Part shown: positions 24,872 through 58,700 of the stretch, piece by piece
How the letters are laid out: every line of letters starts with the position of its first letter
Position numbering within the stretch: the stretch's first letter is position 1
NCBI GenBank assembly: GCA_964016885.1
Contig: OZ024757.1
Location: 1,054,001 to 1,118,000, forward strand
DNA length: 64,000 nucleotides
Reading direction: 5' to 3'
Origin: Eledone cirrhosa
Lineage: Eukaryota
Position numbers and translations under genes: made by a program
Notes under the pieces: model-generated
Database searches by the model: none
What the model was told of the DNA's origin: nothing
The model's input: only the letters and a program-made list of their open reading frames with translations

Positions 24872-24877
24872 TATTAT

Positions 24878-25410: not shown

Positions 25411-25433
25411 TGTTTATATTTGAACATGTGTGT

Positions 25434-26803: not shown

Positions 26804-26964
26804 CTAGCATTTTCAGAGTCAACATGAGGGAGATGTGGGTGCTATTTCTTACCTCTTCTAAGACACTGTTGTGTGATTTGAGGAATAGTTTAGCTGCTAT
26901 TTCTGGCAGGTTCTATGGTAGTAATGTGTAATTTGAGTATGTGTATATATGTATATGTGTGTTG

Positions 26965-28950: not shown

Positions 28951-29127
28951 GGAGGTGTGTGACCTAGTGTTGGACCTATGATCATAATGTTATGGGTTCT
29001 ATTCCTCGGTTGTGTGTTGTGTTCTTGAGCAAGACACTTTATTTCCCGTTGCTCCAGTATACTCAGCTGACAATGAGTACCAGCAATAGCTGCTGGGGGT
29101 TTAACCATGTGATGGACTGGTGTCCTA
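28951..29127 (+). mobile_element. SINE family B (CORE-like), 3'-truncated at the Penelope-like element
   Basis: tRNA head, ttgagcaagacactttatttccc, ends at gatggactggtgtcct. Confidence 0.8.
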
Positions 29128-30704: not shown

Positions 30705-30891
30705 GGTGGATTGGCAGTATTGGTAGAGGGTTGGACGCCATGCTTTCCACCATAGTTACGTCCCTTTACGGTCTGAGTTCAAATCCCGCCGAGGTTAACT
30801 TTGCCTTTCATCCTTACGGAGTCGATAAAATAAAGTACCAGTAATGCACTGGGTAATTGCTGGCCTTGTGCCAAAAGTAGAAACAATTATT
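30705..30891 (+). mobile_element. SINE family A
   Basis: near-identical to 23862-24048. Confidence 0.88.
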
Positions 30892-31076
30892 TTACTATTA
30901 TTACTTCAAGAACCACCTGTCTAGGAACTTTCTTAAACTGGCCACCTGACTAAGGAATCTTCTTGTTGAGTCAAACAACGGCGTACGTTAAAACTATCTT
31001 CGACACAGAGTACTCACAACCTCTAGCTGGATTACCTTAAACGATAACTTATCCTATATATATATATAGGATAAGT

Positions 31077-34610: not shown

Positions 34611-35064
34611 TGTCGTAAAGGGGAACAAAGTCACACAACTAGGACGAGGTCACGAGAGTTATGTAACGTAGTGTTCACGTGATCACCTCGTGTTAACTTT
34701 TATCATGGCTGCCATCACGGTAAACTGCACCAACTTAACCGACACACACACACACACACACACATATGTGTGTATATATATATACATATGTATGTATGTA
34801 TAAATATATATATACATACATATAGATATAGATTTACCTACACTCACACATACACATCCATACACACACATGCACCCATAAATGTAAACTTCTGTTGACA
34901 CACATAAATATTTATATATACACACACACTCACAAATGTATAGAAATATATAATATATATATATATATACATACAGGAGATACATGAAAAGAACATGTTT
35001 TTTCATTGCAGGGTGGTTTTACTCCGTTGCTTCCTTTGATATATATATATATATATGTATTTAG

Positions 35065-35124
<60 letters not shown>

Positions 35125-35132
35125 GTGTGTGT

Positions 35133-35420
35133 GAAGTCACATGGCTTAGTGGTTAGGCTTGTAATCGAAAGGTTGTGAGTTCAATTCTCGGACCGGGTGA
35201 TGTGTTGTTTCCTTGAGCAAGACACTTTATTTCACGTTGCTCCAGTTTACTCAGCTGAAAACGAGCGCCAGCAATAGCTAGAGGTTTAACCCTGCGATGG
35301 ACTGGCGTCCTGTCCAGGGGGGAGTCTTGTACTCTCAGTCGCTTCACGCCATGAAACCGGGATAAGCACCGGCCAAATGAGCCTTCTGGCTTAAGACAAA
35401 ATTTAGACTTTTAGACTTAG
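35133..35420 (+). mobile_element. full-length SINE family B (tRNA head, CORE-like body, conserved 3' domain, short ttagac tail)
   Basis: A and B boxes, ccttgagcaagacactttatttcacgttgctccag, cctgcgatggactggcgtcctgtccagggggg...gaaaccgggataagcaccggcc. Confidence 0.88.
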
Positions 35421-35448
35421 ATATAATTACATATATATATTACATATG

Positions 35449-35710
35449 TGGATCGCGTGGCCCAGTGGTAACTGTCGAAATACGATCATAATGTCGTGGG
35501 TTCGATTCCTGAACTCGGTTGTGTCTTATGTTGTTGAGCAAAACACGTCATTTTTATGTTGCTCCAGTCCTCAGAGGAGTGTCTAGTCTTCTCACCACGG
35601 ACCCCAGGTTAAGCCCCGCTCTAATATGCCCCCAGGCAGACTTTAGCCCTGCAATGGTGTCCTGTCCCAGGGAGGATGAAATTTGTCTCAAGATGTTGAA
35701 ACGCATGAAT
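35449..35710 (+). mobile_element. older, diverged SINE family B copy
   Basis: tggcccagtggt..gggttcgattcct..ttgagcaaaacacg..gttgctccagt..tggtgtcctgtcccaggg. Confidence 0.65.
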
Positions 35711-35736
35711 TGAGTAAATATGTTTTCGCTGTTTCG

Positions 35737-37630
35737 TGTATGTCAGCTAGTCTGGATCTCTGGAAGGGTACCACGGCTGAAGTATGTCAGCTAGTCTGGA
35801 TCTCTGGAAGGGCACCACGGCTGAAGTATGTCAGCTAGTCTGGCACTCTGGAAGGGCACCACGGCTGAAGTATGTCAGCTAGTCTGGATCTCTGGAAGGG
35901 CACCACGGCTGAAGTATGTCAGCTAGTCTGGATCTCTGGAAGGGCACCACGGCTGAAGTATGTCAGCTAGTCTGGATCTTTGGAAGGGCACCATGGCTGA
36001 AGTATGTCAGCTAGTCTGGATCTCTGGAAGGACACCATGGCTGAAGTATGTCAGCTAGTCTGGATCTCTGGAAGGGTACCACGGCTGAAGTATGTCAGCT
36101 AGTCTGGATCTCTGGAAGGGCACCACGGCTGAAGTATGTCAGCTAGTCTGGCACTCTGGAAGGGCACCACGGCTGAAGTATGTCAGCTAGTCTGGATCTC
36201 TGGAAGGGCACCACGGCTGAAGTATGTCAGCTAGTCTGGATCTCTGGAAGGGCACCACGGCTGAAGTATGTCAGCTAGTCTGGATCTCTGGAAGGGCACC
36301 ATGGCTGAAGTATCTCAGCTAGTCTGGATCTCTGGAAGGGTACCACGGCTGAAGTATGTCAGCTAGTCTGGATCTCTGGAAGGGTACCACGGCTGAAGTA
36401 TGTCAGCTAGTCTGATTCTCTGGAAGGGTACCACGGCTGCAGTATGTCAGCTAGTCTGGATCTCTGGAAGGGCACCACGGCTGAAGTATGTCAGCTAGTC
36501 TGGATCTCTGGAAGGGCACCACGGCTGAAGTATGTCAGCTAGTCTGGATCTCTGGAAGGGCACCATGGCTGAAGTATCTCAGCTAGTCTGGATCTCTGGA
36601 AGGGTACCACGGCTGAAGTATGTCAGCTAGTCTGGATCTCTGGAAGGGTACCATGGCTGAAGTATGTCAGCTAGTCTGGATCTCTGGAAGGGTACCACGG
36701 CTGAAGTATGTCAGCTAGTCTGGATCTCTGGAAGGGCACCACGGCTGAAGTATGTCAGCTAGTCTGGATCTCTGGAAGGGCACCATGGCTGAAGTATCTC
36801 AGCTAGTCTGGATCTCTGGAAGGGTACCACAGCTCATGTATGTCAGCTAGTCTGGATCTCTGGAAGGGTACCACGGCTGAAGTATGTCAGCTAGTCTGGA
36901 TCTCTGGAAGGGCACCATGGCTGAAGTATCTCAGCTAGTCTGGATCTCTGAAAGGGCACCACGGCTGAAGTATCTCACCTAGTCTGGATCTCTGGAAGGG
37001 TACCATGGCTGAAGTATGTCAGCTAGTCTGGATCTCAGGAAGGGTACCACGTCTGAAGTATGTCAGCTAGTCTGGATCTCTGGAAGGGTACCACGGCTGA
37101 AGTATGTCAGCTAGTCTGGATCTCTGGAAGGGTACCATGGCTGAAGTATGTCAGCTAGTCTGGATCTCAGGAAGGGTACCACGTCTGAAGTATGTCAGCT
37201 AGTCTGGATCTCTGGAAGGGTAACACGGCTGAAGTATGTCAGCTAGTCTGGATCTCTGGAAGGGTACCACAGCTCATGTATGTCAGCTAGTCTGGATCTC
37301 TGGAAGGGTACCACGGGTCAAGTATGTCAGGTAGTCTGGACCTCTGGAAGGGCACCACGGCTCATGTATGTCGGATCTCTGGAAGGGCACCACGGCTCAT
37401 GTATGTCAGACCTCTAGGAAGGGTACTGCAGCTCATGTATGTCAGCTAGTCTGGACATCTGGAAGGGCACCACGGCTCATGTATGTCGGATCTCTGGAAG
37501 GGTACCACAACTCATGTATGTCAGCTAGTCTGGACCTCTGGAAGGGCACCATGGCTCATGTATGTCAGACCTCTGGAAAAGCACCAAGGCTCATGTATGT
37601 CAGCTAGTCGGGAACTCTGGAAGGGCACCA
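35737..37630. repeat. 44-bp satellite, about 43 copies, derived from LINE ORF2
   Basis: monomer gtatgtcagctagtctggatctctggaagggcaccacggctgaa; tggaagg at 35761 and 35805. Confidence 0.97.
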
Positions 37631-37791
37631 AAGCAATGGCAATTGTTAGTAATTATCCCAATTTTCAAAAGGGGAAACAAGAGAGATAGCTCTAATTATA
37701 GAGGAATCTCCTTATCTTTGGCAAGACTTCAGGAAATTGTGGAAATATTGTTAAGTGACATGTTTGTTTTGTGGACTTTGAAAAAGCATGT
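37590..37791 (+). mobile_element. RTE-like LINE reverse-transcriptase fragment with internal deletions
   Basis: HVCQLVGNSGRAPKQWQLLVIIPIFKRGNKRDSSNYRGISL, then CFVDFEKA at about 37765-37788. Confidence 0.88.
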
Positions 37792-40700
37792 ACTCTCAGT
37801 CACACCATAGACTGGTGTCCTGTCTAGTGGGAGTCTTGTACTCTCAGTCACAGCATAGACTGGTGTCCTGTCTAGGAGGAGTCTTGTACTCTCAGTCACA
37901 CAATAGACTGGTGTCCTGTCTAGGAGGAGTCTTGTACTCGCAGTCAAACCATAGACTGGTGTCCTATCTAGGAGGAGTCTTGTACTCTCAGTCACACCAT
38001 CGACTGGTGTCCTGTCTAGGGGGAGACTTGTACTCTCAATCACACCATATACTGGTGTTCTGTCTAGGAGGTGTCTTGTACTCTCAGTCACAACATAGAC
38101 TGGTGTCCTGTCTAGGAGGAGTCTTGTACTCTCAGTCGCACCATAGACTAGTGTCCTGTCTAGGAGGAGTCTTGTATTCTCAGTCACACCATTGACTAGT
38201 GTCCTGTCTAGGGTGAGTGTTGTACTCTCAGTCACACCACACCATAAACTGGTGTCCTGTGCAGGGGGAGTCCTGTACTCCCAGCCACACCATAGACTGG
38301 TGTCCTGTCCAGGGGGAGTCCTGTACTCTCAGTCACAGCATGGACAGGTGTCCTGTCTAGGGGGATGATTGTATTCTCAGTCCACCACACCATAGACTGG
38401 TGTCCTGTCCAGGGGGAGTCTTGTAGACTCAGTCACACCATAGATTGGTGTCCTGTCTAGGGAGGAGTCTTGTACTCTCAGTCACACCATAGACTGGTGT
38501 CCTGTCTAGGGGGAGTCTTCTGCTCTCAGTCACACAATACACTGGTGTCCTGTCAAGGGGGAGTCTTGTAGTCTCAGTCACACCATAGACTGGTGTCCTG
38601 TCTAGGGGGAGTCTTGTACTCTCAGTCACACTACACCATAAACTGGTCTCCTGTGCAGCGGGAGTCCTGTACTCTCAGCCACACCAAAGACTGGTGTCCT
38701 GTCCAGGGGGAGTCCTGTACTCTCAGTCACAGCATGGACAGGTGTCCTGTCTAGGGGGATTCTTGTATTCTCAGTCCACCACACCATAGACTGGTGTCCT
38801 GTCCAGGGGGAGACTTGTACTCTCAGTCACACCATAGACTAGAGTCCTGTCCAGGGGAAGTTTTGTACTCTCAGTCACACCATAGACTGGTGTCCTGTCC
38901 AGGGGAAGTCTTGTACTCTCAGTCACACTACACCATAGACTGGTATCCTGTCTCGGGGCAGTCCTGTACTCTCAGTCACACCATAGACTGGTGTCCTGTC
39001 TAGGGGAAGTCTTCTGCTCTCAGTCACACCATACACTGGTGTCCTGTCTAGGGGGAGTCTTGTAGTCTCAGTCACACCATAGACTGGTGTCCTGTCTAGG
39101 GGGAGTCTTGTACTCTCAGTCACACCATTGACTAGTGTCCTGTCTAGGGTGAGTGTTGTACTCTCAGTCACACCACACCATAAACTGGTGTCCTGTGCAG
39201 GGGGAGTCCTGTACTCCCAGCCACACCATAGACTGGTGTCCTGTCCAGGGGGAGTCCTGTACTCTCAGTCACAGCATGGACAGGTGTCCTGTCTAGGGGG
39301 ATGATTGTATTCTCAGTCCACCACACCATAGACTGGTGTCCTGTCCAGGGGGAGACTTGTACTCTCAGTCACACCATAGACTAGAGTCCTGTCCAGGGGA
39401 AGTCTTGTTCTCTCAGTCACACCATAGACTGGTGTCCTGTCGAGGGGAAGTCTTGTATTCTCAGTCATACTACACCATAGACTGGTGTCCTGTCTCGGGG
39501 CAGTCCTGTACTCTCAGTCACACCATAGACTGGTGTCTTGTCGAGGGGGAGTCTTGTACTCTCAATCACACCACAACATAGACTGGTGTCCTGTCCAGGG
39601 GAAGTCTTGTACTCTCAGTCACACCACACCATAGACTGGTGTCCTGTCTAGGGGGAGTTTTGTACTCTCAGCCACACCACATCATAGACTGGTGTCCTGT
39701 CCAGGGGAAGTCTTGTACTCTCAGTCACACCACACCATAGACTGGTGTCCTGTCTAGGGGACTCTTGTACTCTCAGTCACACCACACCATAGACTGGTGT
39801 CCTGTCTAGGGGGACTCTTGTACTCTGTCACACCACACCGTTGACTGGTGTTCTGTTTAGGAGGAGTCTTGTACTCTCAGTCACACCATAGACTGGTGTC
39901 CTGTCTATGGTAGTCTTGTACTCTCAGTCACACCAAACCATGGACTAGTGTCCTGTCTAGCGGGAGTCTTGTACTCTCAGTCACACCATAGACTGGTGTC
40001 CTGTCTAGGGGGAGTCTTGTATCCTCAGAAACACCATAGACTGGTGTCCAGGGGGAGTCTTGTACTCTAAGTCACAATACACCATAGACTGGTGTTCTGT
40101 CCAGTGGGAGTCTTGTACTCTTAGTCACACCATAGACTGGTGTCTTGTCCAGAGGGCGTCTTGTACTCTCAGTCACACAATAGATTGGTGCCCTGTATAG
40201 GGGGAGTCTTGTACTCTAGGTCACACCATCGACTGGTGTCCTGTCTAGGGGCAGTCCTGTACTCTCAGTCACAACATAGACTGGTGTCCTGTCTAGGGGG
40301 AGTCTTGTACTCTCAGTCACAACATAGACTGGTGTCCTGTCTAGGGGGAGACTTGTACTCTCAGTCACACCATAGACTGGTGTCCTGTACAGGGGAAGAC
40401 TTGTACTCTCAGTCACAACATAGACTGGTGTCCTGTCTAGGGGGAGTCTTGTACTCTCAGTCACACGACACCATAGGCTGGTGTCCTGTCTAGGGGAACT
40501 CGTGTACTCTCAGTCACACCATAGACTGGTGTCCTGTCTAGGAGGAGTCTTGTACTCTCAATCACACCATAGACTGGTGTCCTGTCTAGGGGGAGTCTGG
40601 TACTCTCAGACACATCATAGACTGGTGTCCTGTCTAGGAGGTGTCTTGTATTCTCAGTCACACCATAGACTGGTGTCCTGTCTAGGAGGAGTCTTGTATT

Positions 40701-43700
40701 CTCAGTCACACCATCGACTGGTGCCCTGTCTAGGGGGAGTCTTGTACTCTCAGTCACACCATAGATTGGTGTCCTGTCTAGGGGGAGTCTTGTACTCTCA
40801 GTCACACCATAGACTGGTGTCCTGTCTAGGGAGGAGTCTTGTACTCTCAGTCACACCATAGACTGGTGTCCTGTCTAGGGGGAGTCTTCTGCTCTCAGTC
40901 ACACCATACACTGGTGTCCTGTCTAGGGGGAGTCTTGTAGTCTCAGTCACACCATAGACTGGTGTCCTGTCTAGGGGGAGTCTTGTACTCTCAGTCACAC
41001 TACACCATAAACTGGTCTCCTGTGCAGCGGGAGTCCTGTACTCTCAGCCACACCATAGACTGGTGTCCTGTCCAGGGGGAGTCCTGTACTCTCAGTCACA
41101 GCATGGACAGGTGTCCTGTCTAGGGGGATTCTTGTATTCTCAGTCCACCACACCATAGACTGGTGCCCTGTCTAGGGGGAGTCTTGTACTCTCAGTCAAA
41201 CCATAGATTGGTGTCCTGTCTAGGGGGAGTCTTGTACTCTCAGTCACACCATAGACTAGAGTCCTGTCCAGGGGAAGTTTTGTACTCTCAGTCACACCAT
41301 AGACTGGTGTCCTGTCCAGGGGAAGTCTTGTACTCTCAGTCACACTACACCATAGACTGGTGTCCTGTCTCGGGGCAGTCCTGTACTCTCAGTCACACCA
41401 TAGACTGGTGTCTTGTCGAGGGGGAGTCTTGTACTCTCAATTACACCACATTATAGACTGGTGTCCTGTCTAGGGGCAGTCCTGTACTCTCAGTCACACC
41501 ATAGACTGGTGTCCTGTCTAGGGGCAGTCCTGTACTCTCAGTCACACCATATACTGGTGTCCTGTCTAGGGGCAGTCCTGTACTCTTAGTCACACCATAG
41601 ACTGGTGTCCTGTCGAGGGGAGTCTTATACTCTCAATTACACCACATTATAGACTGGTGTCCTGTCTAGGGGCAGTCCTGTACTCTCAGTCACACCACAC
41701 CATAGACTAGTGTCCTGTCTAGGGGCAGTCCTGTACTCTCAGTCACACCATAGACTGGTGTCCTGTTGAGGGGAAGTCTTGTACTCTCAGTCACACCACA
41801 CCATAGACTGGTGTCCTGTCCAGGGGAAGTCTTGTACTCTCAGTCACACCACACCATAGACTGGTGTCCTGTCTAGTGGACTCTTGTACTCTCAGTCACA
41901 CCACTCCATAGACTGGTGTCCTGTCTAGGGGGACTCTTGTACTCTGTCACACCACACCGTTGACTAGTGTCCTGTTTAGGGGGAGTCTTGTACTCTCAGT
42001 CACACCATAGACTGGTGTCCTGTCTATGGGAGTCTTGTACTCTCAGTCACACCAAACAATGGACTAGTGTCCTGTCTAGCGTGAGTCTTGTACTCTCAGT
42101 CACAACATAGACTGGTGTCCTGTCTAGGAGGAGTCTTGTACCCTCAGTCACACCATAGACTGGAGTCCAGGGGGCGTCTTGTACTCTAAGTCCCAATACA
42201 CCATAGACTGGTGTTCTGTCCAGGGGGAGTCTTATTCTCTCAGTCACACCATAGACTGGTGTCTTGTCCAGGGGAAGTCTTGTACTCTCAGTCACACCAT
42301 AGACTGGAGTCCAGGGGGCGTCTTGTACTCTAAGTCACAATACACCATAGACTGGTGTTCTGTCCAGAAGGAGTCTTATACTCTCAGTCACACCATAGAC
42401 TGGTGTCTTGTCCAGGGGAATCCTGTACTCTCAGTCACACCATAGACTGGTGTCCTGTCCACGGGAAGTTTGTACTCTCAGTCACACCATAGACTGGTGT
42501 CCTGTCTAGGGGGATTCTTCTACTCTCAGTCACAACATAGACTGGTCTCCTGTCTAGGGGAGTCTTGTACTCTCAGTCACACCACACCATAAACTGGTGT
42601 TCTGTCCAGGGTGAGTCTTGTACTCTCAGGTACACCACACCATAGACTGCTGTCCGTTCAATGGGGAGTCTTCTACTCTCAGTCACACCATAGACTGGTG
42701 TCCTGTCTATGGGAGTCTTGTACTCGCAGTCACACCAAACAATGGTGTTCTGTCTAGGGGTACTCTTGTACTCTCAGTGACACGACACCAGAGACTGGTG
42801 TCCTGTCTAGGGGGAGCCTTGTACTCTCGGTCACACAATAGACGGGTGTCCTACTAGGGGAAGTCGTATACTCTCAGTCACACCATGCATTAGTGTCCTG
42901 TCTAGGGGGAGTCTTGTACTCTCAGTCCCGCCACACCGTAAAATAGTGTCATGTTTAGAGGGAGTCTTGTACTCTTAGTCACACCATAGACTAGTGTCCT
43001 GTCCAGAGGGCGTCTCGTACTCTCAGTCACACCATAGACTGGTGCCCTGTATAGAGGGAGTCTTGAACTCTAGGTCACACCATCGACTGGTGTCCTGTCT
43101 AGGGGGAGTCTTGTACTCTCAGTCACAACATAGACTGGTGTCCTGTCTAGGGGGAGTCTTGTACTCTCAGTCACACGACACCATAGACTGGTGTCCTGTC
43201 TAGGGGGAATCGTGTACTCTCAGTCACACCACACCATAGACTGGTGTCCTGTCTAGGGGGAGTGTTGTACTCTCAGTCACACCATAGACTGGTGTCCTGT
43301 CTAGGTAGAGTCTCGTATTCTCAGTCACACAATAGACTGGTGTCCTGTCTAGGGGGGAGTATTGTACACTCAGTCACACCACACCATAGACTGGTGTCCT
43401 GTCTAGGGGGAGTCTCGTATTCTCAGTCACACCATAGACTGGTGTCCTGTCTAGGGGGAGTCTCGTATTCTCAGTCACACAATAGACTGGTGTCCTGTCT
43501 AGGGGGAAGTATTGTACTCTCAGTCACACCACACCATAGACTTGTGTCCTGTCTATGTGGGAGTCTTGTACTCTGTTTCACCATAGACTGGTGTCCTGTC
43601 CAGGGGGAGTCTTGTACCCTCAGTCACGCCATAGACTAGTGTGCCGTCTAGGGGGAATCTTGTGCTCTCAGTCACACCATAGAATGGTGTCATGTTGAAG

Positions 43701-46700
43701 CGGAGTCTTGTACTCACAGCCACACCACACCGTATACTGGTGTACTGTTCAGGGGATGTCTTGTACTCTCAATCACACCATAGACTTATGTCCTGTCTAG
43801 GGGGAGTCTTGTCCTCTCAATCACACCATACACTGGTGTCCTCTCTAGGGGGGGGTCTTGTACTCTCAGTCATACAATAGACTGGTGTGCTCTCTAGGGG
43901 GAGTCTTGTACTCTCAGTCACACCATAGATTGGTGTCCTGTCTAGGTGCGAGTCTTGTATTCTGTCACACTATAGACTGGTGTCCTGTCAAAGGGGAGTC
44001 TTGTAATCTCAGTCACACCATAGACTGGTGTCCTGTTTAGGAGGAGTCTTGTACTCTCAGTCACACGACACCATAGACTGGTGTCCTGTCTAGGAGGAGT
44101 CTTGTATTCTCAGTCACACCATAGACTGGTGTCCTGTCTAGGAGGAGCCTTGTACTCTCAGTCACACCATAGACTGGTGTCCTGTCTAGGAGGAGTCTTG
44201 TACTCTCAGTCACATCATAGACTGGTGTCCTGTCTAGGGAGAGTCTTGTAGACTCAGTCACACCATAGACTGCTGTCCTGTCTAGGGAGGAGTCTTGTAC
44301 TCTCAGTCACACCATAGACTGGTGTCCTGTCTACGGGGAGTCTTCTGCTCTCAGTCACACCATAGACTGGTGTCCTGTCTAGGGGGAGTCTTGTAGTCTC
44401 AGTCACACCATTGACTGGTGTCCTGTCTAGGGGGAGTCTTGTACTCTCAGTCACAACATTGACTAGTGTCCTGTCTAGGGTGAGTGTTGTACTCTCAGTC
44501 ACACCACACCATAAACTGGTCTCCTGTGCAGGGGGAGTCCTGTACTCTCAGCCACACCATAGACTGGTGTCCTGTCCAGGGGGAGTCCTGTACTCTCAGT
44601 CACAGCATGGACAGGTGTCCTGTCTAGGGGGATTCTTGTATTCTCAGTCCACCACACCATAGACTGGTGTCCTGTCCAGGGGTAGACTTGTATTCTCAGT
44701 CACACCATAGACTAGAGTCCTGTCCAGGGGAAGTTTTGTACTCTCAGTCACAACATAGACTGGCGTCCTGTCCAGGGGAAGTCTTGTACTCTCAGTCACA
44801 CTACACCATAGATTGGTGCCCTGTCTAGGGGCAGTCCTGTACTCTCAGTCACACCATAGACTGGTGTCCTGTCTAGGGGCAGTCCTGTACTCTTAGTCAC
44901 ACCATAGACTGGTGTCCTGTTGTGGGGGAGTCTTGTACTCTCAATCACACCACATCATAGACTGGTGTCCTGTCCAGGGGAATTCTTGTACTCTCAGTCA
45001 CACTACACCATAGACTGGTGTCCTGTCTAGGGGCAGTCGTGTACTCTCAGTCACACCATAGACTGGTGTCCTGTTGAGGGGAAGTCTTGTACTCTCAGTC
45101 ACACCACACCATAGACCGGTGTCCTGTCCAGGGGAAGTCTTGTACTCTCAGTCACACCACACCATAGACTGGTGTCCTGTCTAGGGGACACTTGTACTCT
45201 AGGTCACACCACACCATAGACTGGTGTCCTGTCTAGGGGGACTCTTGTACTCTGTCACACCACACCGTTGACTAGTGTCCTGTTTAGGGGGAGTCTTGTA
45301 CTCTCAGTCACACCATAGACTGGTGTCCTGTCTATGGGAGTCTTGTACTCGCAGTCACACCAAACAATGGACTAGTGTCCTGTCTAGCGTGAGTCTTGTA
45401 CTCTCAGTCACAACATAGACTGGTGTCCTGTCCGAGGGAAGTTTGGACTCTCAGTCACACCATAGACTGGAGTCCAGGGGGCGTCTTGTACTCTAAGTCA
45501 CAATACACCATAGACTGGTGTTCTGTCCAGGGGGAGTCTTATACTCTCAGTCACACCATAGACTGGTGTCTTGTCCAGGGGAAGTCTTGTACTCTCAGTC
45601 ACACCATAGACTGGTGTCTTGTCCAGGGGAAGTCTTGTACTCTCAGTCACACCATAGACTGGTGTCCCGTCCACGGGAAGTTTGTACTCTCAGTCACACC
45701 ATAGACTGGTATCCTGTCTAGGGGGATTCTTGTACTCTCAGTCACAACATAGACTGGTGTCCTGTCTAGGGGGAGTCTTGTACTCTCAGTCACACCACAC
45801 CATAGACTGGTGTTCTGTCCAGGGAGAGTCTTTTACTCTCAGGTACACCACACCATAGACTGCTGTCCGTTCAATGGGGAGTCTTCTACTCTCAGTCACA
45901 CCATAGAATGGTGTCCTCTCCAGGGGAAGTATTGTACTCTCAGTCAAACCATAGACTGGTGTCCTGTCTAGGGGGACTCTTGTACTCTCAGTCACACGAC
46001 ACCAGAGACTGGTGTCCTGTCTAGGGGGAGCCTTGTACTCTCGGTCACACAATAGACGGGTGTCCTACTAGGGGAAGTCGTATACTCTCAGTCACACCAT
46101 GCATTAGTGTCCTGTCTAGGGAGAGTCTTGTACTCTCAGTCCCGCCACACCGTAAACTAGTGTCACGTTTAGAGGGAGTCTTGTACACTTAGTCACACCA
46201 TAGACTGGTGCCCTGTATAGAGGGAGTCTTGAACTCTAGGTCACACCATCGACTGGTGTCCTGTCTAGGGGGAGTCTTGTACTCTCAGTCACAACATAGA
46301 TTGGTATCCCGTCTAGGGGGAGTCTTGTACTCTCAGTCACACTATAGACTTATGTCCTGTCTAGGGGGACTCTAGTACTCTGTCACACCATAGACTGGTG
46401 TCCTGTCTAGGGGGAGTCTTGTACTCTCAGTCACACGACACCATAGACTGGTGTCCTGTCTAGGGGGACTCGTGTACTCTCAGTCACACCATAGACTGGT
46501 GTCCTGTCTAGGCGGAGTCTTGTACTCTCAGTCACACCATATATTGGTGTCCTGTCTAGGAGGAGTCTTGTATTCTCAGTCACACCATAGACTGGTGTCC
46601 TGTCTAGGAGGAGCGTTGTACTCACAGTCACACCATAGACTGGTGTCCTGTCTAGGAGGAGTCTTGTACTCGCAGTCACACCATAGACTGGTTTCCTTTC

Positions 46701-49700
46701 TAGGAGGAGTCTTGTACTCTCAGTCACACCATCAACTGGTGTCCTGTCTAGGGGGAGACTTGTACTCTCAATCACACCATATACTGGTGTTCTGTCTAGG
46801 AGGTGTCTTGTACTCTCAGTCACACCATAGACTGGTGTCCTGTCTAGGGGGAGTCTTGTACTCTGACACATCATAGACTGGTGTCCTGTCTAGGAGGAGT
46901 CTTGTATTCTCAGTCACACCATAGACTGGTGTCCTGTCTAGGAGAGGTCTTGTATTCTCAGTGACACCATAGACTGGTGTCATGTTTATGGGGGAGTCTT
47001 GTACTCTCAGTCACATCATAGACTGGTGTGCTGTCTAGGGGGAGTCTTGTAGACTCAGTCACACCATAGATTGTTGTCCTCTCTAGGGGGAGTCTTGTAC
47101 TCTCAGTCACATCATAGACTGGTGTCCTGTCTAGGGAGGAGTCTTGTACACTCAGTCACACCATAGACTGGTGTCCTGTCTAGGGTGAGTCTTCTGCTCT
47201 CAGTCACACCATAGACTGGTGTCCTGTCTAGGGGGAGTCTTGTACTCTAAGTCACAACATTGACTAGTGTCCTGTTTAGGGTGAGTGTTGTACTCTCAGT
47301 CACACCACACCATAAACTGGTCTCCTGTGCAGGGGGAGTCCTGTACTCTCAGCCACACCATAGACTGGTGTCCTGTCCAGGGGGAGTCCTGTACTCTCAG
47401 TCACAGCATGGACAGGTGTCCTGTCTAGGGGGATTCTTGTATTCTCAGTCCACCACACCATAGACTGGTGTCCTGTCCAGGGGTAGACTTGTATTCTCAG
47501 TCACACCATAGACTAGAGTCCTGTCCAGGGGAAGTTTTGTACTCTCAGTCACAACATAGACTGGCGTCCTGTCCAGGGGAAGTCTTGTACTCTCAGTCAC
47601 ACTACACCATAGATTGGTGCCCTGTCTAGGGGCAGTCCTGTACTCTCAGTCACACCATAGACTGGTGTCCTGTCTAGGGGCAGTCCTGTACTCTTAGTCA
47701 CACCATAGACTGGTGTCCTGTTGTGGGGGAGTCTTGTACTCTCAATCACACCACATCATAGACTGGTGTCCTGTCCAGGGGAATTCTTGTACTCTCAGTC
47801 ACACTACACCATAGACTGGTGTCCTGTCTAGGGGCAGTCGTGTACTCTCAGTCACACCATAGACTGGTGTCCTGTTGAGGGGAAGTCTTGTACTCTCAGT
47901 CACACCACACCATAGACCGGTGTCCTGTCCAGGGGAAGTCTTGTACTCTCAGTCACACCACACCATAGACTGGTGTCCTGTCTAGGGGACACTTGTACTC
48001 TAGGTCACACCACACCATAGACTGGTGTCCTGTCTAGGGGGACTCTTGTACTCTGTCACACCACACCGTTGACTAGTGTCCTGTTTAGGGGGAGTCTTGT
48101 ACTCTCAGTCACACCATAGACTGGTGTCCTGTCTATGGGAGTCTTGTACTCGCAGTCACACCAAACAATGGACTAGTGTCCTGTCTAGCGTGAGTCTTGT
48201 ACTCTCAGTCACAACATAGACTGGTGTCCTGTCCGAGGGAAGTTTGGACTCTCAGTCACACCATAGACTGGAGTCCAGGGGGCGTCTTGTACTCTAAGTC
48301 ACAATACACCATAGACTGGTGTTCTGTCCAGGGGGAGTCTTATACTCTCAGTCACACCATAGACTGGTGTCTTGTCCAGGGGAAGTCTTGTACTCTCAGT
48401 CACACCATAGACTGGTGTCTTGTCCAGGGGAAGTCTTGTACTCTCAGTCACACCATAGACTGGTGTCCCGTCCACGGGAAGTTTGTACTCTCAGTCACAC
48501 CATAGACTGGTATCCTGTCTAGGGGGATTCTTGTACTCTCAGTCACAACATAGACTGGTGTCCTGTCTAGGGGGAGTCTTGTACTCTCAGTCACACCACA
48601 CCATAGACTGGTGTTCTGTCCAGGGAGAGTCTTTTACTCTCAGGTACACCACACCATAGACTGCTGTCCGTTCAATGGGGAGTCTTCTACTCTCAGTCAC
48701 ACCATAGAATGGTGTCCTCTCCAGGGGAAGTATTGTACTCTCAGTCAAACCATAGACTGGTGTCCTGTCTAGGGGGACTCTTGTACTCTCAGTCACACGA
48801 CACCAGAGACTGGTGTCCTGTCTAGGGGGAGCCTTGTACTCTCGGTCACACAATAGACGGGTGTCCTACTAGGGGAAGTCGTATACTCTCAGTCACACCA
48901 TGCATTAGTGTCCTGTCTAGGGAGAGTCTTGTACTCTCAGTCCCGCCACACCGTAAACTAGTGTCACGTTTAGAGGGAGTCTTGTACACTTAGTCACACC
49001 ATAGACTGGTGCCCTGTATAGAGGGAGTCTTGAACTCTAGGTCACACCATCGACTGGTGTCCTGTCTAGGGGGAGTCTTGTACTCTCAGTCACAACATAG
49101 ATTGGTATCCCGTCTAGGGGGAGTCTTGTACTCTCAGTCACACTATAGACTTATGTCCTGTCTAGGGGGACTCTAGTACTCTGTCACACCATAGACTGGT
49201 GTCCTGTCTAGGGGGAGTCTTGTACTCTCAGTCACACGACACCATAGACTGGTGTCCTGTCTAGGGGGACTCGTGTACTCTCAGTCACACCATAGACTGG
49301 TGTCCTGTCTAGGCGGAGTCTTGTACTCTCAGTCACACCATATATTGGTGTCCTGTCTAGGAGGAGTCTTGTATTCTCAGTCACACCATAGACTGGTGTC
49401 CTGTCTAGGAGGAGCGTTGTACTCACAGTCACACCATAGACTGGTGTCCTGTCTAGGAGGAGTCTTGTACTCGCAGTCACACCATAGACTGGTTTCCTTT
49501 CTAGGAGGAGTCTTGTACTCTCAGTCACACCATCAACTGGTGTCCTGTCTAGGGGGAGACTTGTACTCTCAATCACACCATATACTGGTGTTCTGTCTAG
49601 GAGGTGTCTTGTACTCTCAGTCACACCATAGACTGGTGTCCTGTCTAGGGGGAGTCTTGTACTCTGACACATCATAGACTGGTGTCCTGTCTAGGAGGAG

Positions 49701-52700
49701 TCTTGTATTCTCAGTCACACCATAGACTGGTGTCCTGTCTAGGAGAGGTCTTGTATTCTCAGTGACACCATAGACTGGTGTCATGTTTATGGGGGAGTCT
49801 TGTACTCTCAGTCACATCATAGACTGGTGTGCTGTCTAGGGGGAGTCTTGTAGACTCAGTCACACCATAGATTGTTGTCCTCTCTAGGGGGAGTCTTGTA
49901 CTCTCAGTCACATCATAGACTGGTGTCCTGTCTAGGGAGGAGTCTTGTACACTCAGTCACACCATAGACTGGTGTCCTGTCTAGGGTGAGTCTTCTGCTC
50001 TCAGTCACACCATAGACTGGTGTCCTGTCTAGGGGGAGTCTTGTACTCTAAGTCACAACATTGACTAGTGTCCTGTTTAGGGTGAGTGTTGTACTCTCAG
50101 TCACACCACACCATAAACTGGTCTCCTGTGCAGGAGGAGTCCTGTACTCTGAGCCACACCATAGACTGGTGTCCTGTCCAGGGGAAGTTTTGTACTCTCA
50201 GTCACACCATAGACTGGCGTCCTGTCCAGGGGAAGTCTTGTACTCTCAGTCACACTATACCATAGACTGGTGCCCTGTCTAGGGGCAGTCCTGTACTCTC
50301 AGTCACACCATAGACTGGTGTCCTGTCTAGGGGCAGTCCTGTACTCTTAGTCACACCATAGACTGGTGTCCTGTCGAGGGGGAGTCTTGTACTCTCAATC
50401 ACACCACATCATAGACTGGTGTCCTGTCCAGGGGAAGTCTTGTACTCTCAGTCACACTACACCATAGACTGGTGTCCTGTCTAGGAGGAGTCTTGTACTC
50501 TCAGTCACACCAACGACTGGTGTTCTGTCTAGGGGGAGACTTGTACTCTCAATCACACCATATACTGGTGTTCCGTCTAGAAGGTGTCTTGTACTCTCAG
50601 TCACACCATAGACTGGTGTCCTGTCTAGGAGGAGTCTTGTACTCTCAGTCACACCATAGACTAGTGTCCTGTCTAGGGGGAGTCTTGTACTCTCAGATAC
50701 ATCTTAGACTGGTGTCCTGTCTAGGAGGAGTCTTGTATTCTCAGTCACACCATAGACTGGTGTCCTCTCTAGGAGGAGTCTTGTATTCTCAGTCACATCA
50801 TAGACTGGTGTCCTGTCTAGGGGGAGTCTTGTACTCTCAGTCACATCTTAGACTGGTGTCCTGTCTAGGGGGAGTCTTGTAGACTCAGTCACACCACAGA
50901 CTGGTGTCCTGTCTAGGGGGAGTCTTCTGCTCTCAGTCACACCATACACTGGTGTCCTGTCTAGAGGGAGTCTTGTAGTCTCAGTCACACCATAGACTGG
51001 TGTCCTGTCTAGGGGGAGTCTTGTACTCTCAGTCACAACATTGACTAGTGTCCTGTCTAGGGTGAGTGTTGTACTCTCAGTCACACCACACCATAAACTG
51101 GTCTCCTGTGCAGGGGGAGTCCTGTACTCTCAGCCACACCATAGACTGGTGTCCTGTCCAGGGGGAGTCCTGTACTCTCAGTCACAGCATGGACAGGTGT
51201 CCTGTCTAGGGGGATTCTTGTATTCTCAGTCCACCACACCATAGACTGGTGTCCTGTCCAGGGGGAGACTTGTACTCTCAGTCACAACATAGACTAGAAT
51301 CCTGTCCAGGGGAAGTTTTGTACTCTGTCACACCATAGACTGGTGTCCTGTCCAGGGGAAATCTTGTACTCTCAGTCACACCACACCATAGACTGCTGTC
51401 CTGTCTAGGGGACTCTTGTACTCTCAGTCACACCACACCATAGACTGGTGTCCTGTCTAGGGGGACTCTTGTACTCTGGCACACCACACCGTTGACTAGT
51501 GTCCTGTTTAGGGGGAGTCTTGTACTCTCAGTCACACCATAGACTGGTGTCCTGTCTATGGGAGTCTTGTACTCTCTGTCACACCAAACAATGGACTAGG
51601 GTCCTGTCTAGCGTGAGTCTTGTACTCTCAGTAACAACATAGGCTGGTGTCCTGTCTAGGAGGAGTCTTGTACCCTCAGTCACACCATAGACTGGAGTCC
51701 AGGGGGCGTCTTGTACTCTAAGTCCCAATACACCATAGACTGGTGTTCTGTCCAGGGGGAGTCTTGTTCTCTCAGTCACACCATAGACTGGTGTCTTGTC
51801 CAGGGGAAGTCTTGTACTCTCAGTCACACCATAGACTGGTGTCCTGTCCAGGGGAAGTTTGTACTCTCAGTCACACCATATACTGGAGTCCAGGGGGCGT
51901 CTTGTACTCTAAGTCACAATACACCATAGTCTGGTGTTCTGTCCAGAAGGAGTCTTATACTCTCAGTCACACCATAGACTGGTGTCTTGTCCAGGGGAAT
52001 CCTGTACTCTCAGTCACACCATAGACTGGTGTCCTGTCCACGGGAAGTTTGTACTCTCAGTCACACCATAGACTGGTGTCCTGTCTAGGGGGATTCTTCT
52101 ACTCTCAGTCACAACGTAGACTGGTGTCCTGTCTAGGGGGACTCTTGTACTCTCAGTCACACCACACCATAGACTGGTGTTCTGTCCAGGGTGAGTCTTG
52201 TACTCTCAGGTACACCACACCATAGACTGCTGTCCGTTCAATGGGGAGTCTTCTACTCTCAGTCACACCATAGACTGGTGTTCTGTCTAGGGGGACTCTT
52301 GTACTCTCAGTCACACGACACCAGAGACTGGTGTCCTGTCTAGGGGGAGTCTTGTACTCTCAGTCCCGCCACACCGTAAACTAGTGTCATGTTTAGAGGG
52401 AGTCTTGTACTCTTAGTCACACCATAGACTAGTGTCCTGTCCAGAGGGCGTCTCGTACTCTCAGTCACACCATAGACTGGTGCCCTGTATAGAGGGAGTC
52501 TTGAACTCTAGGTCACACCATCGACTGGTGTCCTGTCTAGGGGGACTCGTGTACTCTCAATCACACCACACCATAGGCTGGTGTCCTGTCTAGGGGGAGT
52601 GTTGTACTCTCAGTCACACCATAGACTGGTGTCCTGTCTAGGGGGAGTCTCGTATTCTCAGTCACACAATAGACTGGTGTCCTGTCTAGCGGGAAGTATT

Positions 52701-55700
52701 GTACTCTCAGTCACACCACACCATAGACTTGTAGTCCTGTCTAGGGGGAGTCTTGTATTCTCAGTCACACCATAGACTGGTGTCCTGTCTAGGGGGCGTC
52801 TTGTACTCTCAGTCACACCATAGACTTGTGTCCTGTCTATGTGGGAGTCTTGTACTCTGTTTCACCATAGACTGGTGTCCTGTCCAGGGGGAGTCTTGTA
52901 CCTTCAGTCACGCCATAGACTAGTGTCCCGTCTAGGGGGAATCTTATGCTCTCAGTCACACCATAGAATGGTGTCATGTTTAAGCGGAGTATTGTACTCT
53001 CAGCCACACCACACCGTATACTGGTGTACTGTTCAGGGGATGTCTTGTACTCTCAATCACACCATAGACTTATGTCCTGTCTAGGGGGAGTCTTGTACTC
53101 TCAGTCACACCATTGACTGGTGTCCTGTCCAGGGGAAGTCCTGTACTCTTAGTCACACCACAAAATAGACTGGTGTCCTGTCTAGGGGGAGTCTTGTACT
53201 CTCAGTCACACCATAGACTGGTGTCCTGTCTAGGTGCGAGTCTTGTATTCTGTCACACTATAGACTGGTGTCCTGTCCAAGGGGAGTCTTGTAATCTCAG
53301 TCACACCATAGACTGGTGTCCTGTGTAGGGGGAGTCTTGTACTCTCAGTCACACGACACCATAGACTGGTGTCCTGTCTAGGGGGACTCGTGTACTCTCA
53401 GTCACACCATAGACTGGTGTCCTGTCTAGGAGGAGTTTTGTACTCTCAGTCACACCATAGACTGGTGTCCTGTCTAGGAGGAGTCTTGTACTCTCAGTCA
53501 CACCATAGACTGGTGTCCTGTCTAGGAGGAGTCTTGTACTCTCAGTCACACCATAGACTAGTGTCCTGTCTAGGAGGAGTCTTGTACTCTCAGTCACACC
53601 ATAGACTGGTGTGCTGTCTAGGAGGAGCCTTGTATTCTCAGTCACACCATAGACTGGTGTCCTGTCTAGGGGGAGTCTTGTACTCTCAGTCACATCATAG
53701 ACTGGTGTCCTGTCTAGGGGGAGTCTTGTAGACTCAGTCACACCATAGATGGTGTCCTGTCTAGGGGGAGTCTTGTACTCTCAGTCACACCATAGACTGC
53801 TGTCCTGTCTAGGGAGGAGTCTTGTACTCTCAGTCACACCATAGACTGGTGTCCTGTCTAGGGGGAGTCTTCTGCTCTCAGTCACACCATACACTGGTGT
53901 CCTGTCTAGGGGGAGTCTTGTAGTCTCAGTCACACCATAGACTGGTGTCCTGTCTAGGGGGAGTCTTGTACTCTCAGTCACAACATTGACTAGTGTCCTG
54001 TCTAGGGTGAGTGTTGTACTCTCAGTCACACCACACCATAAACTGGTCTCCTGTGCAGGGGGAGTCCTGTACTCTCAGCCACACCATAGACTGGTGTCCT
54101 GTCCAGGGGGAGTCCTGTACTCTCAGTCACAGCATGGAGAGGTGTCCTGTCTAGGGGGATTCTTGTATTCTCAGTCCACCACACCATAGACTGGTGTCCT
54201 GTCCAGGGGGAGACTTGTACTCTCAGTCACACCATAGACTAGAGTCCTGTCCAGGGGAAGTTTTGTACTCTCAGTCACAACATAGACTGGCGTCCTGTCC
54301 AGGGGAAGTCTTGTACTCTCAGTCACACTACACCATAGACTGGTGCCCTGTCTAGGGGCAGTCCTATACTCTCAGTCACACCATTGACTGGTGTCCTGTT
54401 GAGGGGAAGTCTTGTACTCTCAGTCACACCACACCATAGACTTGTGTCCTGTCCAGTGTAAGTCTTGTACTCTCAGTCACACCACACCATAGACTGGTGT
54501 CCTGTCTAGGGTACTCTTGTACTCTCAGTCACACCACACCATAGACTGGTGTCCTGTCTAGGGGGACTCTTGTACTCTGTCACATCACACCGTTGACTAG
54601 TGTCCTGTTTAGGGGGAATCTTGTACTCTCAGTCACACCATAGACTGGTGTCCTGTCTATGGGATTCTTGTACTAACAGTCACACCAAACAATGGACTAG
54701 TGTCCTGTCTAGCGTGAGTCTTGTACTCTCAGTTACAACATAGACTGGTGTCCTGTCTAGGAGGGGTCTTGTACCCTCAGTCACACCATAGACTGGAGTC
54801 CAGGGGGCGTCTTGTACTCTAAGTCACAATACACCATAGACTGGTGTCCTGCCCAGGGGAAGTTTGTACTCTCAGTCACACCATAGACTGGTGTCCTGCC
54901 CAGGGGAAGTTTGTACTCTCAGTCACACCATAGACTGGAGTCCAGGGGGCGTCTTGTACTCTAAGTCACAATACACCATAGACTGGTGTTCTGTCCAGGG
55001 GGAGTTTTATACTCTGTCACACCATAGACTGGTGTCTTGTCCAGGGGAAGTTTTGTACTCTCAGTCACACCATAGACTGGTGTCCTGTCCACGTGAAGTT
55101 TGTACACTCAGTCACACATAGACTGGTGTCTTGTCCAGGGGAAGTCTTGTACTCTCAGTCACACCATAGACTGGTGTCCTGTCCACGGGAAGTTTGTACT
55201 CTCAGTCACACCATAGACTGGTGTCCTGTTTAGGGGGATTCTTGTACTCTCAGTCACAACATAGACTGGTGTCCTGTCTAGGGGGATTCTTGTACTCTCA
55301 GTCACACCATAGACTGGTGTCCTCTCTAGGAGGAGTCTTGTATTCTCAGTCACATCATAGACTGGTGTCCTGTCTAGGGGGAGTCTTGTACTCTCAGTCA
55401 CATCTTAGACTGGTGTCCTGTCTAGGGGGAGTCTTGTACTCTCAGTCACATCTTAGACTGGTGTCCTGTCCAGGGTGAGTCTTGTACTCTCAGGTACACC
55501 ACACCATAGACTGCTGTCCGTTCAATGGGGAGTCTTCTACTCTCAGTCACACCATAGACTGGTGTCCTGTCCAGGGGAAGTATTGTACTCTCAGTCAAAC
55601 CATAGACTGGTGTCCTGTCTAGGGGACTCTTGTACTCTCAGTCACACGACACCAGAGACTGGTGTCCTGTCTAGGGGGAGACTTGTACTCTCGGTCACAC

Positions 55701-58700
55701 AATAGACGGGTGTCCTACTAGGGGAAGTCGTATACTCTCAGTCACACCATGCATTAGTGTCCTGTCTAGGGGGAGTCTTGTACTCTCAGTCCCGCCACAC
55801 CGTAAACTAGTGTCATGTTTAGAGGGAGTCTTGTACTCTTAGTCACACCATAGACTGGTGTCCTGTCCAGAGGGCGTCTCGTACTATCAGTCACACCATA
55901 GACTGGTGCCCTGTATAGAGGGAGTCTTGAACTCTAAGTCACACCATCGATTGGTGTCCTGTCTAGGGGGAGTCTTGTACTCTCAGTCACAACATAGATT
56001 GGTGTCCTGTCTAAGGGGAGTCTTGTACTCTCAGTCACACCATAGACTGGTGTCCTGTACAGGGGAAGACTTGTACTCTCAGTCACACTATAGACTTATG
56101 TCCTGTCTAGGGGGACTCTTGTACTCTGTCACACCATAGACTGGTGTCCTCTCTAAGGGGAGTCTTGTACTCTCAGTCACACGACACCATAGACTGGTGT
56201 CCTGTCTAGGGGTACTCGTGTACTCTCAGTCACACCATAGACTGGCGTTCTGTCTAGGAGGAGTCTTGTACTCTCAGTCACACCATAGACTAGTGTCCTG
56301 TCTAGGAGGAGTGTTGTACTCACAGTCACACCATAGACTGGTGTCCTGTCTAGGAGGAGTCTTGTACTCTCAGTCACACCATAGACTGGTGTCCTGTCTA
56401 GGAGGAGTCTTGTACTCTAAGTCACACCATAGACTGGTGTCCTGTCTAGGAGGAGTCTTGTACTCGTAGTCACACCATCAACTGGTGTCCTGTGTAGGGG
56501 GAGACTTGTACTCTCAATCACACCATATACTGGTGTTCTGTCTAGGAGGTGTCTTGTACTCTCAGTCACACCATAGACTGGTGTCCTGTCTAGGAGGAGT
56601 CTTGTACTCTCAGTCACACCATAGACTAGTGTCCTGTCTAGGGGGAGTCTTGTACTCTCAGTCACATCATAGACTGGTGTCCTGTCTAGGGGGAGTCTTG
56701 TAGACTCAGTCACACCATAGATTGGTGTCCTCTCTAGGGGGAGTCTTGTACTCTCAGTCACACCATAGACTGGTGTCCTGTCTAGGGATGAGTCTTGTAC
56801 TCTCAGTCACACCATAGACTGGTGTCCTGTCTACGGGGAGTCTTCTGCTCTCAGTCACACCATAGACTGGTGTCCTGTCTAGGGGGAGTCTTGTAGTCTC
56901 AGTCACACCATTGACTGGTGTCCTGTCTAGGGGGAGTCTTGTACTCTCAGTCACAACATTGACTAGTGTCCTGTCTAGGGTGAGTGTTGTACTCTCAGTC
57001 ACACCACACCATAAACTGGTCTCCTGTGCAGGGGGAGTCCTGTACTCTCAGCCACACCATAGACTGGTGTCCTGTCCAGGGGGAGTCCTGTACTCTCAGT
57101 CACAGCATGGACAGGTGTCCTGTCTAGGGGGATTCTTGTATTCTCAGTCCACCACACCATAGACTGGTGTCCTGTCCAGGGGTAGACTTGTATTCTCAGT
57201 CACACCATAGACTAGAGTCCTGTCCAGGGGAAGTTTTGTACTCTCAGTCACAACATAGACTGGCGTCCTGTCCAGGGGAAGTCTTGTACTCTCAGTCACA
57301 CTACACCATAGATTGGTGCCCTGTCTAGGGGCAGTCCTGTACTCTCAGTCACACCATAGACTGGTGTCCTGTCTAGGGGCAGTCCTGTACTCTTAGTCAC
57401 ACCATAGACTGGTGTCCTGTTGAGGGGGAGTCTTGTACTCTCAATCACACCACATCATAGACTGGTGTCCTGTCCAGGGGAATTCTTGTACTCTCAGTCA
57501 CACTACACCATAGACTGCTGTCCTGTCTAGGGGCAGTCGTGTACTCTCAGTCACACCATAGACTGGTGTCCTGTTGAGGGGAAGTCTTGTACTCTCAGTC
57601 ACACCACACCATAGACCGGTGTCCTGTCCAGGGGAAGTCTTGTACTCTCAGTCACACCACACCATAGACTGGTGTCCTGTCTAGGGGACACTTGTACTCT
57701 AAGTCACACCACACCATAGACTGGTGTCCTGTCTAGGGGGACTCTTGTACTCTGTCACACCACACCGTTGACTAGTGTCCTGTTTAGGGGGAGTCTTGTA
57801 CTCTCAGTCACACCATAGACTGGTGTCCTGTCTATGGGAGTCTTGTACTCGCAGTCACACCAAACAATGGACTAGTGTCCTGTCTAGCGTGAGTCTTGTA
57901 CTCTCAGTCACACCATAGACTGGTGTCCTGTCCGAGGGAAGTTTGGACTCTCAGTCACACCATAGACTGGAGTCCAGGGGGCGTCTTGTACTCTAAGTCA
58001 CAATACACCATAGACTGGTGTTCTGTCCAGGGGGAGTCTTATACTCTCAGTCACACCATAGACTGGTGTCTTGTCCAGGGGAAGTCTTGTACTCTCAGTC
58101 ACACCATAGACTGGTGTCTTGTCCAGGGGAAGTCTTGTACTCTCAGTCACACCATAGACTGGTGTCCCGTCCACGGGAAGTTTGTACTCTCAGTCACACC
58201 ATAGACTGGTATCCTGTCTAGGGGGATTCTTGTACTCTCAGTCACAACATAGACTGGTGTCCTGTCTAGGGGGAGTCTTGTACTCTCAGTCACACCACAC
58301 CATAGACTGGTGTTCTGTCCAGGGAGAGTCTTTTACTCTCAGGTACACCACACCATAGACTGCTGTCCGTTCAATGGGGAGTCTTCTACTCTCAGTCACA
58401 CCATAGAATGGTGTCCTCTCCAGGGGAAGTATTGTACTCTCAGTCAAACCATAGACTGGTGTCCTGTCTAGGGGGACTCTTGTACTCTCAGTCACACGAC
58501 ACCAGAGACTGGTGTCCTGTCTAGGGGGAGCCTTGTACTCTCGGTCACACAATAGACGGGTGTCCTACTAGGGGAAGTCGTATACTCTCAGTCACACCAT
58601 GCATTAGTGTCCTGTCTAGGGAGAGTCTTGTACTCTCAGTCCCGCCACACCGTAAACTAGTGTCACGTTTAGAGGGAGTCTTGTACACTTAGTCACACCA

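Follow-up and report, generated by a model that had tools for sequence, protein, structure and literature searches.

A 44-bp minisatellite in a decayed LINE reverse-transcriptase fragment of Eledone cirrhosa, probably grown in place

We examined a 64-kb window of the Eledone cirrhosa contig OZ024757.1, in which five arrays of period 28 or more make up 73% of the sequence. One of them is a 44-bp tandem array which, as the initial annotation had proposed, lies inside a LINE reverse-transcriptase (RT) segment; we identified 44 units within a decayed non-LTR reverse-transcriptase fragment (Table 1). The label "satellite" given to it was not kept, as an array of 1.9 kb and 44 units is a minisatellite by size. 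Tandem Repeats Finder (TRF) called the array at 35738-37630, with period 44, 43.8 copies, 90% matches and a score of 2925. The units were split first at the start of the VCQ codons, which gave 44 units, and the split was then moved 4 bases; in this phase the array consists of exactly 44 head-to-tail units (35734-37634), 40 of which are 44 nt long, three 35 nt and one 36 nt.

Table 1. Features at and around the 44-bp array, with positions counted from the first letter of the window
Feature	Position	Strand	Basis and remarks
Neighbouring full-looking SINE copy	35125..35400	+	Family reference; aligned to the copies at 22745 and 28950; 80-88% in blastn to three further copies
SINE head and first part of the core, diverged copy	35447..35574	+	Local alignment to 35130-35254, score 83; blastn 72% over 79 nt, E=8e-6
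Intervening stretch of about 65 bp, SINE parts on both sides	35575..35641	.	No match elsewhere in the window among the matches listed; no recognisable translation
SINE core, left part	35642..35676	+	Score 38 against SINE core 35270-35345; 0/5000 shuffles reach score 38
LINE RT-region fragment, left flank	35672..35733	+	P0002 residues 567 to about 587; one stop, changes at conserved positions (tblastn; family column frequencies)
44-bp minisatellite, 44 units	35734..37634	+	Monomer corresponds to 44 nt of the LINE ORF around residues 588-601 (TRF, re-phasing, per-unit tblastn)
Homogeneous zone, units 1-24, presumably young	35738..36793	+	On average 1.0 difference to the majority unit and 1.7 between pairs; blocks of 7 and 6 units duplicated
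Diverged zone, units 37-44, presumably old	37322..37634	+	Mean of 5.3 differences from the majority unit, 4.6 pairwise; "ctcat" spacers; four 9-nt-deleted units
LINE fragment, right flank	37635..37714	+	Continues the frame of the last unit as far as residue 628, ...NYRGISL
Frameshifted, internally deleted LINE remainder	37715..37789	+	Ends at CFVDFEKA; no 3' end or tail after it
48-bp tandem array from SINE core	37790..64000	+	At least 26.2 kb, runs off the window; TRF period 48, 533.8 copies

Both flanks of the array read in the same frame, the left one as LFRVCQLVW and the right one as KQWQLLVIIPIFKRGNKRDSSNYRGISL, as had been noticed from the sequence. The left flank, the monomer and the right flank correspond to residues 567-588, 589-600 and 601-628, respectively, of an endonuclease and RT protein, here referred to as P0002. 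When P0002 was aligned to the window by tblastn, residues 567-601 matched 35672-35776, a stretch which includes unit 1 (46% over 35 aa, E=1.6e-4), and residues 589-628 matched 37595-37714, including unit 44 (67.5% over 40 aa, E=8.8e-12); in per-unit tblastn, the units between the flanks matched residues 589-600/601. The last unit and the right flank together stay open for 40 codons. Searched against 5.8 billion proteins, these 40 aa matched 2 RT proteins, the best being P0002 (68% identity, E=1.5e-7), and 208 proteins at E<=0.001 in a representative library.

The start of the LINE had been placed at 35725, which did not hold, as homology begins at about 35666-35672, with a stop inside. The array had also been described as having the LINE on its right; LINE sequence flanks it on both sides, and the wording can apply to the 3' side only. 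The right flank had been followed on to CFVDFEKA. The motif is indeed present, where it matches 7/8 residues of P0002 689-696 and is not significant alone (E=29 for P0002), but it stands in another frame, and the distance to it is about 130 nt (about 43 codons) shorter than an intact RT would have. The flanks continue the element colinearly on both sides as far as residue 628, beyond which the frame shifts and about 43 codons are missing. Apart from the array, only about 220 bp of the LINE survive, and both of its ends are missing. Judged by homology, these alignments show a decayed internal piece of the ORF of an endonuclease and RT non-LTR retrotransposon.

The collapsed sequence had been expected to be colinear with the LINE across both flanks, and this was borne out with nothing collapsed at all: the first residue of the monomer falls at one protein position when counted from either flank, with an offset of 0 in 17/17 homologs. 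The sample comprised 152 queried proteins, 142 of which match the right side, while 17 also match the left side at E<0.05.

P0002 has 1047 aa in a single ORF, in which Pfam recognises RVT_1 (E=1e-40) and Exo_endo_phos (E=2e-8), and its nearest PDB structures are LINE-1 ORF2p and then R2. Its named relatives are RT proteins of fish and rotifers. The piece in the window is identical to P0002 at 36/64 residues, with a median of 41% over 120 relatives, and its 40-aa part alone matched no Pfam family; its placing among non-LTR elements of the endonuclease and RT type comes from the RT homology and from the AP-type endonuclease in the intact relative P0002. Members of the RTE clade have a single ORF and a short C-terminus without a CCHC knuckle. 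No CCHC knuckle was found in P0002, in which 188 aa follow the RT. We assume the RT motifs of the fragment to be of RTE (Expander/Rex3-like) type. The architecture of P0002 fits the RTE clade (Rex3/Expander-like), a fit seen on the relative only, and no match bore the name RTE, Rex3 or Expander.

No target-site duplication was seen, in that 35645-35680 and 37780-37815 share no word of >=4 nt. A 3' tail of short tandem repeats, GATC in the case of Rex3, is absent, the fragment ending inside the RT. The piece is filed as a fragment derived from an RTE-type element, not as a member of Rex3. A tail of short tandem repeats is described for Rex3 in PMC6274825, and an octopus RTE element (RTE-2_OV) in PMC9115989, whose supplementary PDF contains no RT sequence motif. 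With these RTE-clade LINEs (Rex3/Expander, RTE-2_OV) P0002 shares a single ORF of about 1050 aa with endonuclease and RT; they differ from the locus, at which about 220 bp of the element are left, without the tail. A scan of bacterial and archaeal genomes for LINE-family DNA returned 58 candidate stretches, and also one locus of unrelated look with 30% identity outside the RT segment; neither was drawn upon here.

A second LINE fragment in the window, at 28225-28428 (-), corresponds to another part of the ORF, P0002 residues 394-460 (36%, E=3e-5 against the window), with no Pfam match, and probably represents a different family. Copies with a (TGA)n-type tail at 26961-27176 (+) and 25433-25639 (-), 75% identical, resemble a LINE 3' end, which we presume them to be.

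On both sides of the LINE piece we found parts of a SINE. The head at 35447-35574 is tRNA-type by its look, as far as we can presume. The score of 35642-35676 against the SINE core is equalled, apart from the arrays, by SINE copies alone. The last ~10 nt of this part also read as LINE codons, forming a junction overlap; protein alignments begin within it, at 35666-35675. The SINE core resumes right after CFVDFEKA, within about 3 nt of the break point before the LINE piece. When the neighbouring SINE copy (35125-35400) was compared with the window by blastn, 505/510 matches fell inside the 48-bp array, the best with 93% over 44 nt (E=2e-12); the monomer of this array has a homologue among the dispersed SINEs of the genome, as expected of a SINE-derived tandem array. 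Among its 526 counted units, 297 have 48 nt and 114 have 53 nt. We considered the 53-nt units as ancestral units of SINE length and rejected this, as the extra 5 nt look like a local micro-duplication and not like the 5 nt of the SINE. The 48-bp array also holds an exact duplicate of 2858 bp at lag 2801 (44476/47277) and another of 1209 bp at lag 9749, which are either recent block duplications or assembly effects.

Two points go beyond the initial annotation: what remains of the LINE is a short stretch from its interior that lies within a SINE, and the 48-bp array next to it derives from a SINE. The order of the parts can be read directly, with the LINE piece interrupting the SINE, and the SINE core to its right would likewise have expanded into the 48-bp array. 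As to how the LINE piece arrived, it may have inserted in 5'-truncated form and later lost its 3' half through a deletion reaching into the array, which is quite possible, or it may be the product of a templated insertion or a template switch, and to these two taken together we lean slightly. Template switching and non-allelic recombination have been discussed for the exchange of SINE and LINE modules (PMC4758252).

Other repeats share the window. A 38-bp array at 5776-21879 (16 kb, about 423 copies) is highly uniform at 1.0-1.6 differences per unit, with a slight rise only, from 1.0 to about 1.5, and no source of its monomer elsewhere in the window; no source was found in the window either for an AT-rich 72-bp array (1982-4348, 33.7 copies) or for a 28-bp array (26092-26357, 9.6 copies). 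An open frame of 189 codons at 29163-29732 (+), with a GIY-YIG match at the Pfam cut-off (E=1.4e-4), interrupts the SINE copy 28950-29126, and a stretch resembling a short inverted repeat by eye precedes the frame, at about 29130-29215. This frame is probably, on our assumption, a fragment of a Penelope-like element. A second SINE-like family has four copies of 90-96% identity, at 672-780, 23862-24066, 26626-26817 and 30705-30908. The SINE types in the window are presumably octopus-SINE-like. An octopus CORE-SINE is known (PMC4824008), and for the O. vulgaris genome PMC13282606 reports 12.9% LINEs and 11.6% SINEs, with RTE, Dong-R4, CR1 and Penelope families.

Within the 44-bp array, the monomer peptide had been given as VCQLVW(I/T)SGRAP; it is exact in 15/44 units, but most others are off by one or two residues. 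Units of 44 nt, a length not divisible by 3, leave the array without a reading frame, and 25-32 stops in each of the six frames rule out a coding or in-frame array. The array is non-coding and has no sign of function. Rfam gave 21 weak matches, all under the curated scores, 20 of which lie on dinucleotide repeats near 35036-35144 and one of which had E=0.94, and ARAGORN found no tRNA gene. A hairpin as the trigger of slippage was also tried and rejected, as two units fold worse than 189/200 shuffles (z=+1.38). Arrays of this kind give spurious multi-hit RT matches in annotation.

The array would have begun with a decayed internal piece of the LINE ORF at this locus, in which one exact tandem duplication of 44 nt, without an indel, provided the seed. 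The 8-nt spacer between cores can then be explained by the duplication joint, at which the 4 LINE bases that follow the core meet the 4 that precede it. This 4+4 split fits best among the nine gapless splits, and in its phase the array divides into units without remainder. The spacers of units 25, 35, 39 and 43 depart from the 4+4 junction at 2/8 bases and those of five units at 3, whereas the 34 others depart at 5-6; here the ancestral junction is predicted from present-day mutated flanks. Of random 8-mers, 3.3% come within 2 mismatches of any split and 15% within 3, the distance of most right-end units. We visually weighed two other routes to the spacer, a 48-nt duplication minus a 4-nt deletion and a longer microhomology duplication with two deletions, and dropped both since the gapless 4+4 junction gives the length without an indel. 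No microhomology is visible in the present-day flanks at the proposed seed junction, and the flank bases at the 4+4 junction hold no direct repeats of 5-10 bp as in the model of Haber and Louis, which are not required for the class. Overall, a single indel-free duplication of 44 nt is the likely seed.

That the duplication took place at this locus is also a matter of where the tandem is absent. It could have arisen once elsewhere, in a LINE sub-family or a multi-locus family, been delivered here by retrotransposition or ectopic conversion, and grown afterwards. Arrays that expand from tandem repeats carried by retrotransposons are known (Ogre 3' UTRs, PMC7004042), as are multilocus tandem repeats (PMC3389668). 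The window itself contains a dispersed repeat with copies at 5080-5465 and 24870-25365, the second of which has an extra ~92 nt in an internal 68-bp tandem; this block reflects either a minor expansion on the spot or a deletion from the 5080-5465 copy. On the other hand, no second copy of the 44-bp monomer, nor of either flank, was found elsewhere in the 64-kb window, and none of 120 relatives, all from other species and from a search that favours intact ORFs, shows extra residues within positions 585-604 when best aligned. Moreover, a 44-nt duplication breaks the ORF, and thus an autonomous element could not have carried the tandem. We therefore consider delivery from elsewhere unlikely, and a start at this locus is retained.

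The array is polar, as had been claimed: the mean number of differences from the majority unit is 1.0 in units 1-24, 2.6 in units 25-36 and 5.3 in units 37-43. Divergence rises with position (Spearman 0.68), and 3/200,000 permutations reach this value; since the units are related, the P is descriptive. The 9-nt deletion occurs near the right end, in units 38, 39, 41 and 43, also as claimed. The ctcat units, said to lie on the right, do end units 37-43, but are found in units 25 and 35 as well (9/43 in total). The four bases before the core are TCGT in the flank, TCAT in the spacers ending units 37-43, TCAA in unit 36 and TGAA in most of units 1-34, which makes a series of one change at a time in positional order. 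The mismatch to the predicted junction drops with position (Spearman -0.50). The last unit has a private change at a conserved W (W in 68% of 120 relatives). As the right-hand ctcatg units are the closest to the junction predicted from the flanks, theirs is probably the old end.

Taken the other way round, the left ctgaa units would be ancestral and kept uniform by homogenisation, and the right units would be decayed edge copies. Edge decay is common in arrays, and the statistical support for the junction match is modest (the 3.3% and 15% above). However, the right units have differences in common (the spacer in 7/7, the deletion in 4/7), unlike the products of independent decay, and they are nearer to the prediction from both flanks, while the unit at the left edge is not decayed (1 difference). 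Such a reversed polarity seems quite improbable to us. We consider it probable, on the variants and the junction, that the right end holds the old units and that derived variants were amplified leftwards to the left edge. Growth would not have been strictly one-directional, since old-type spacers in units 25 and 35 lie inside the young zone, and exchange would have taken part too. The 48-bp array shows no divergence gradient (Spearman 0.002), and thus polarity is not a property of the whole locus. Polar addition of units is usual in the growth of minisatellites, according to PMC3389668.

The initial annotation had left it to a check whether RT reiteration or slippage at the DNA level made the tandem, and the pattern of variants points to the latter. 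In the former case, the LINE reverse transcriptase would have slipped back 44 nt repeatedly on its RNA and delivered the whole array in one insertion, which agrees with a monomer made of LINE coding sequence, in the orientation of the LINE and in register with both flanks. Copies of one template would nevertheless form a star of equal age, whereas here variants are common to up to 20 units, and the 88 substitution states include 28 distinct ones. In 20,000 simulations, a star null averaged 64 distinct states and gave no fewer than 52, assuming equal mutation rates; with CpG hot spots the null would be lower. There are duplicated blocks of 6-7 units, seen as exact repeats of 242 bp at lag 308 (a 7-unit block) and 213 bp at lag 264 (a 6-unit block), and divergence is graded along the array. 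All four gametes are present in 11/45 column pairs, 5 of the 11 being clear of the CpG columns 37-38. Finally, the left units are about 4% apart, yet a stop, a frameshift and deletions are present in the flanks. A single bout of RT reiteration is thus very improbable as the source of the array; a single slip that made the first two copies, the seed alone, could be granted a small chance. Within what sequence can tell, the shared variants, the block duplications and the four gametes show growth at the DNA level.

For this growth, we propose that out-of-register exchange, gene conversion or slippage, with the exact enzymes presumed, would add units singly and in blocks of 5-7 and would also shuffle variants within units. 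Growth would then be polar, with old units kept at the right and derived variants amplified leftwards. That the assembler made the array or its length is hardly credible: tandem regions are indeed error-prone and the neighbouring 48-bp array has its exact 2858-bp duplicate, recent or artefactual, but the 44-bp units carry ordered, nested variants with a longest exact duplicate of 242 bp, and 1.9 kb is easily spanned by long reads. Taken as a whole, the locus very probably holds a non-functional, transposon-derived minisatellite grown where it stands.

Tandem copies of RT segments were also found outside this locus. The predicted proteins P0085, P0014, P0032, P0034, P0022 and P0027 have head-to-tail copies of the same or an adjacent RT segment, about nine copies of 14 residues in P0085 and four of 56 residues in P0014. 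An internal repeat is present in 24/152 protein matches, 3 of the 24 lying outside the RT. This suggests that tandem duplications of RT segments are not rare, with the search favouring them and some perhaps being artefacts. A duplication hot spot in the RT segment was not accepted as proven, because the search favours matches in several stretches and many duplicates are 100% identical, as errors of assembly or gene models would be.

Minisatellites have units of 10-100 bp and up to about 100 copies in the size classes of PMC3389668 and PMC6947457, a range in which 44 units of 44 nt fall. By its unit size, its homology to a transposable element (TE) and its colinear flanks, the 44-bp array is classed on sequence as an in-place TE-derived minisatellite. 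In the survey of PMC3389668, 23% of human minisatellites are TE-derived (7,276 cases), and PMC6947457 treats minisatellites derived from Alu, B1 and MaLR. Like these, the array has a monomer of 10-100 bp that comes from a TE at its own position, with local and usually polar expansion; it differs in that its monomer stems from RTE-type LINE coding sequence in an invertebrate genome, and in that both flanks are in register. As both flanks are in register and the changes are ordered, the seed junction and the direction of growth become readable.

Satellites related to LINE ORFs are listed in PMC9659126, among them chicken HinfI/CR1 ORF2, PROsat/LINE-1 ORF2 in Phodopus, Pvc 20 in the harbour seal and the common cetacean satellite. 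These share with the array a tandem monomer homologous to a LINE, in several cases to ORF2. They are listed, however, as families in which the monomer includes, or is similar to, a section of a LINE, whereas here the whole 44-nt monomer is ORF and the array is still in the parent copy. The SINE-derived satellites listed in PMC9659126 and PMC6947457 include Xenopus satellite 1, Hy/Pol III of Hydromantes and the mouse B1 VNTR. The 48-bp array resembles them in having a SINE segment as monomer, but this comes from the centre of the SINE rather than from its tRNA head, and a LINE-derived minisatellite directly adjoins the array.

Published examples already exist of TE-derived minisatellites, of LINE-ORF-related satellites and of polar growth. 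In the literature searched, with subscription journals thinly covered and hence as weak evidence of absence, we found no account of the 44-bp array, of a minisatellite derived from an RTE ORF or of an octopus SINE-derived 48-bp array. The locus adds an example, not a mechanism or a function, and stands as a clear but ordinary birth of a tandem repeat from mobile elements. The origin of long-unit tandem repeats is poorly explained, and known models account for only 6% of TE-derived cases in the survey of PMC3389668. Here, a tidy natural record of a seed junction and a direction of growth is at hand, and LINE-derived and SINE-derived arrays stand back to back at one locus. Perhaps, though we think it rather unlikely, a single event of break repair or template switching pasted the LINE fragment into the SINE, and the unstable chimeric junction gave rise to the LINE-ORF array and the SINE-core array side by side, by a route that recurs. 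If this were true and recurrent genome-wide, kilobase arrays would routinely form from retroelement junctions in the lineage, and loci with both parent flanks and an ordered series of mutations would make the birth of minisatellites and the direction of their growth directly testable.
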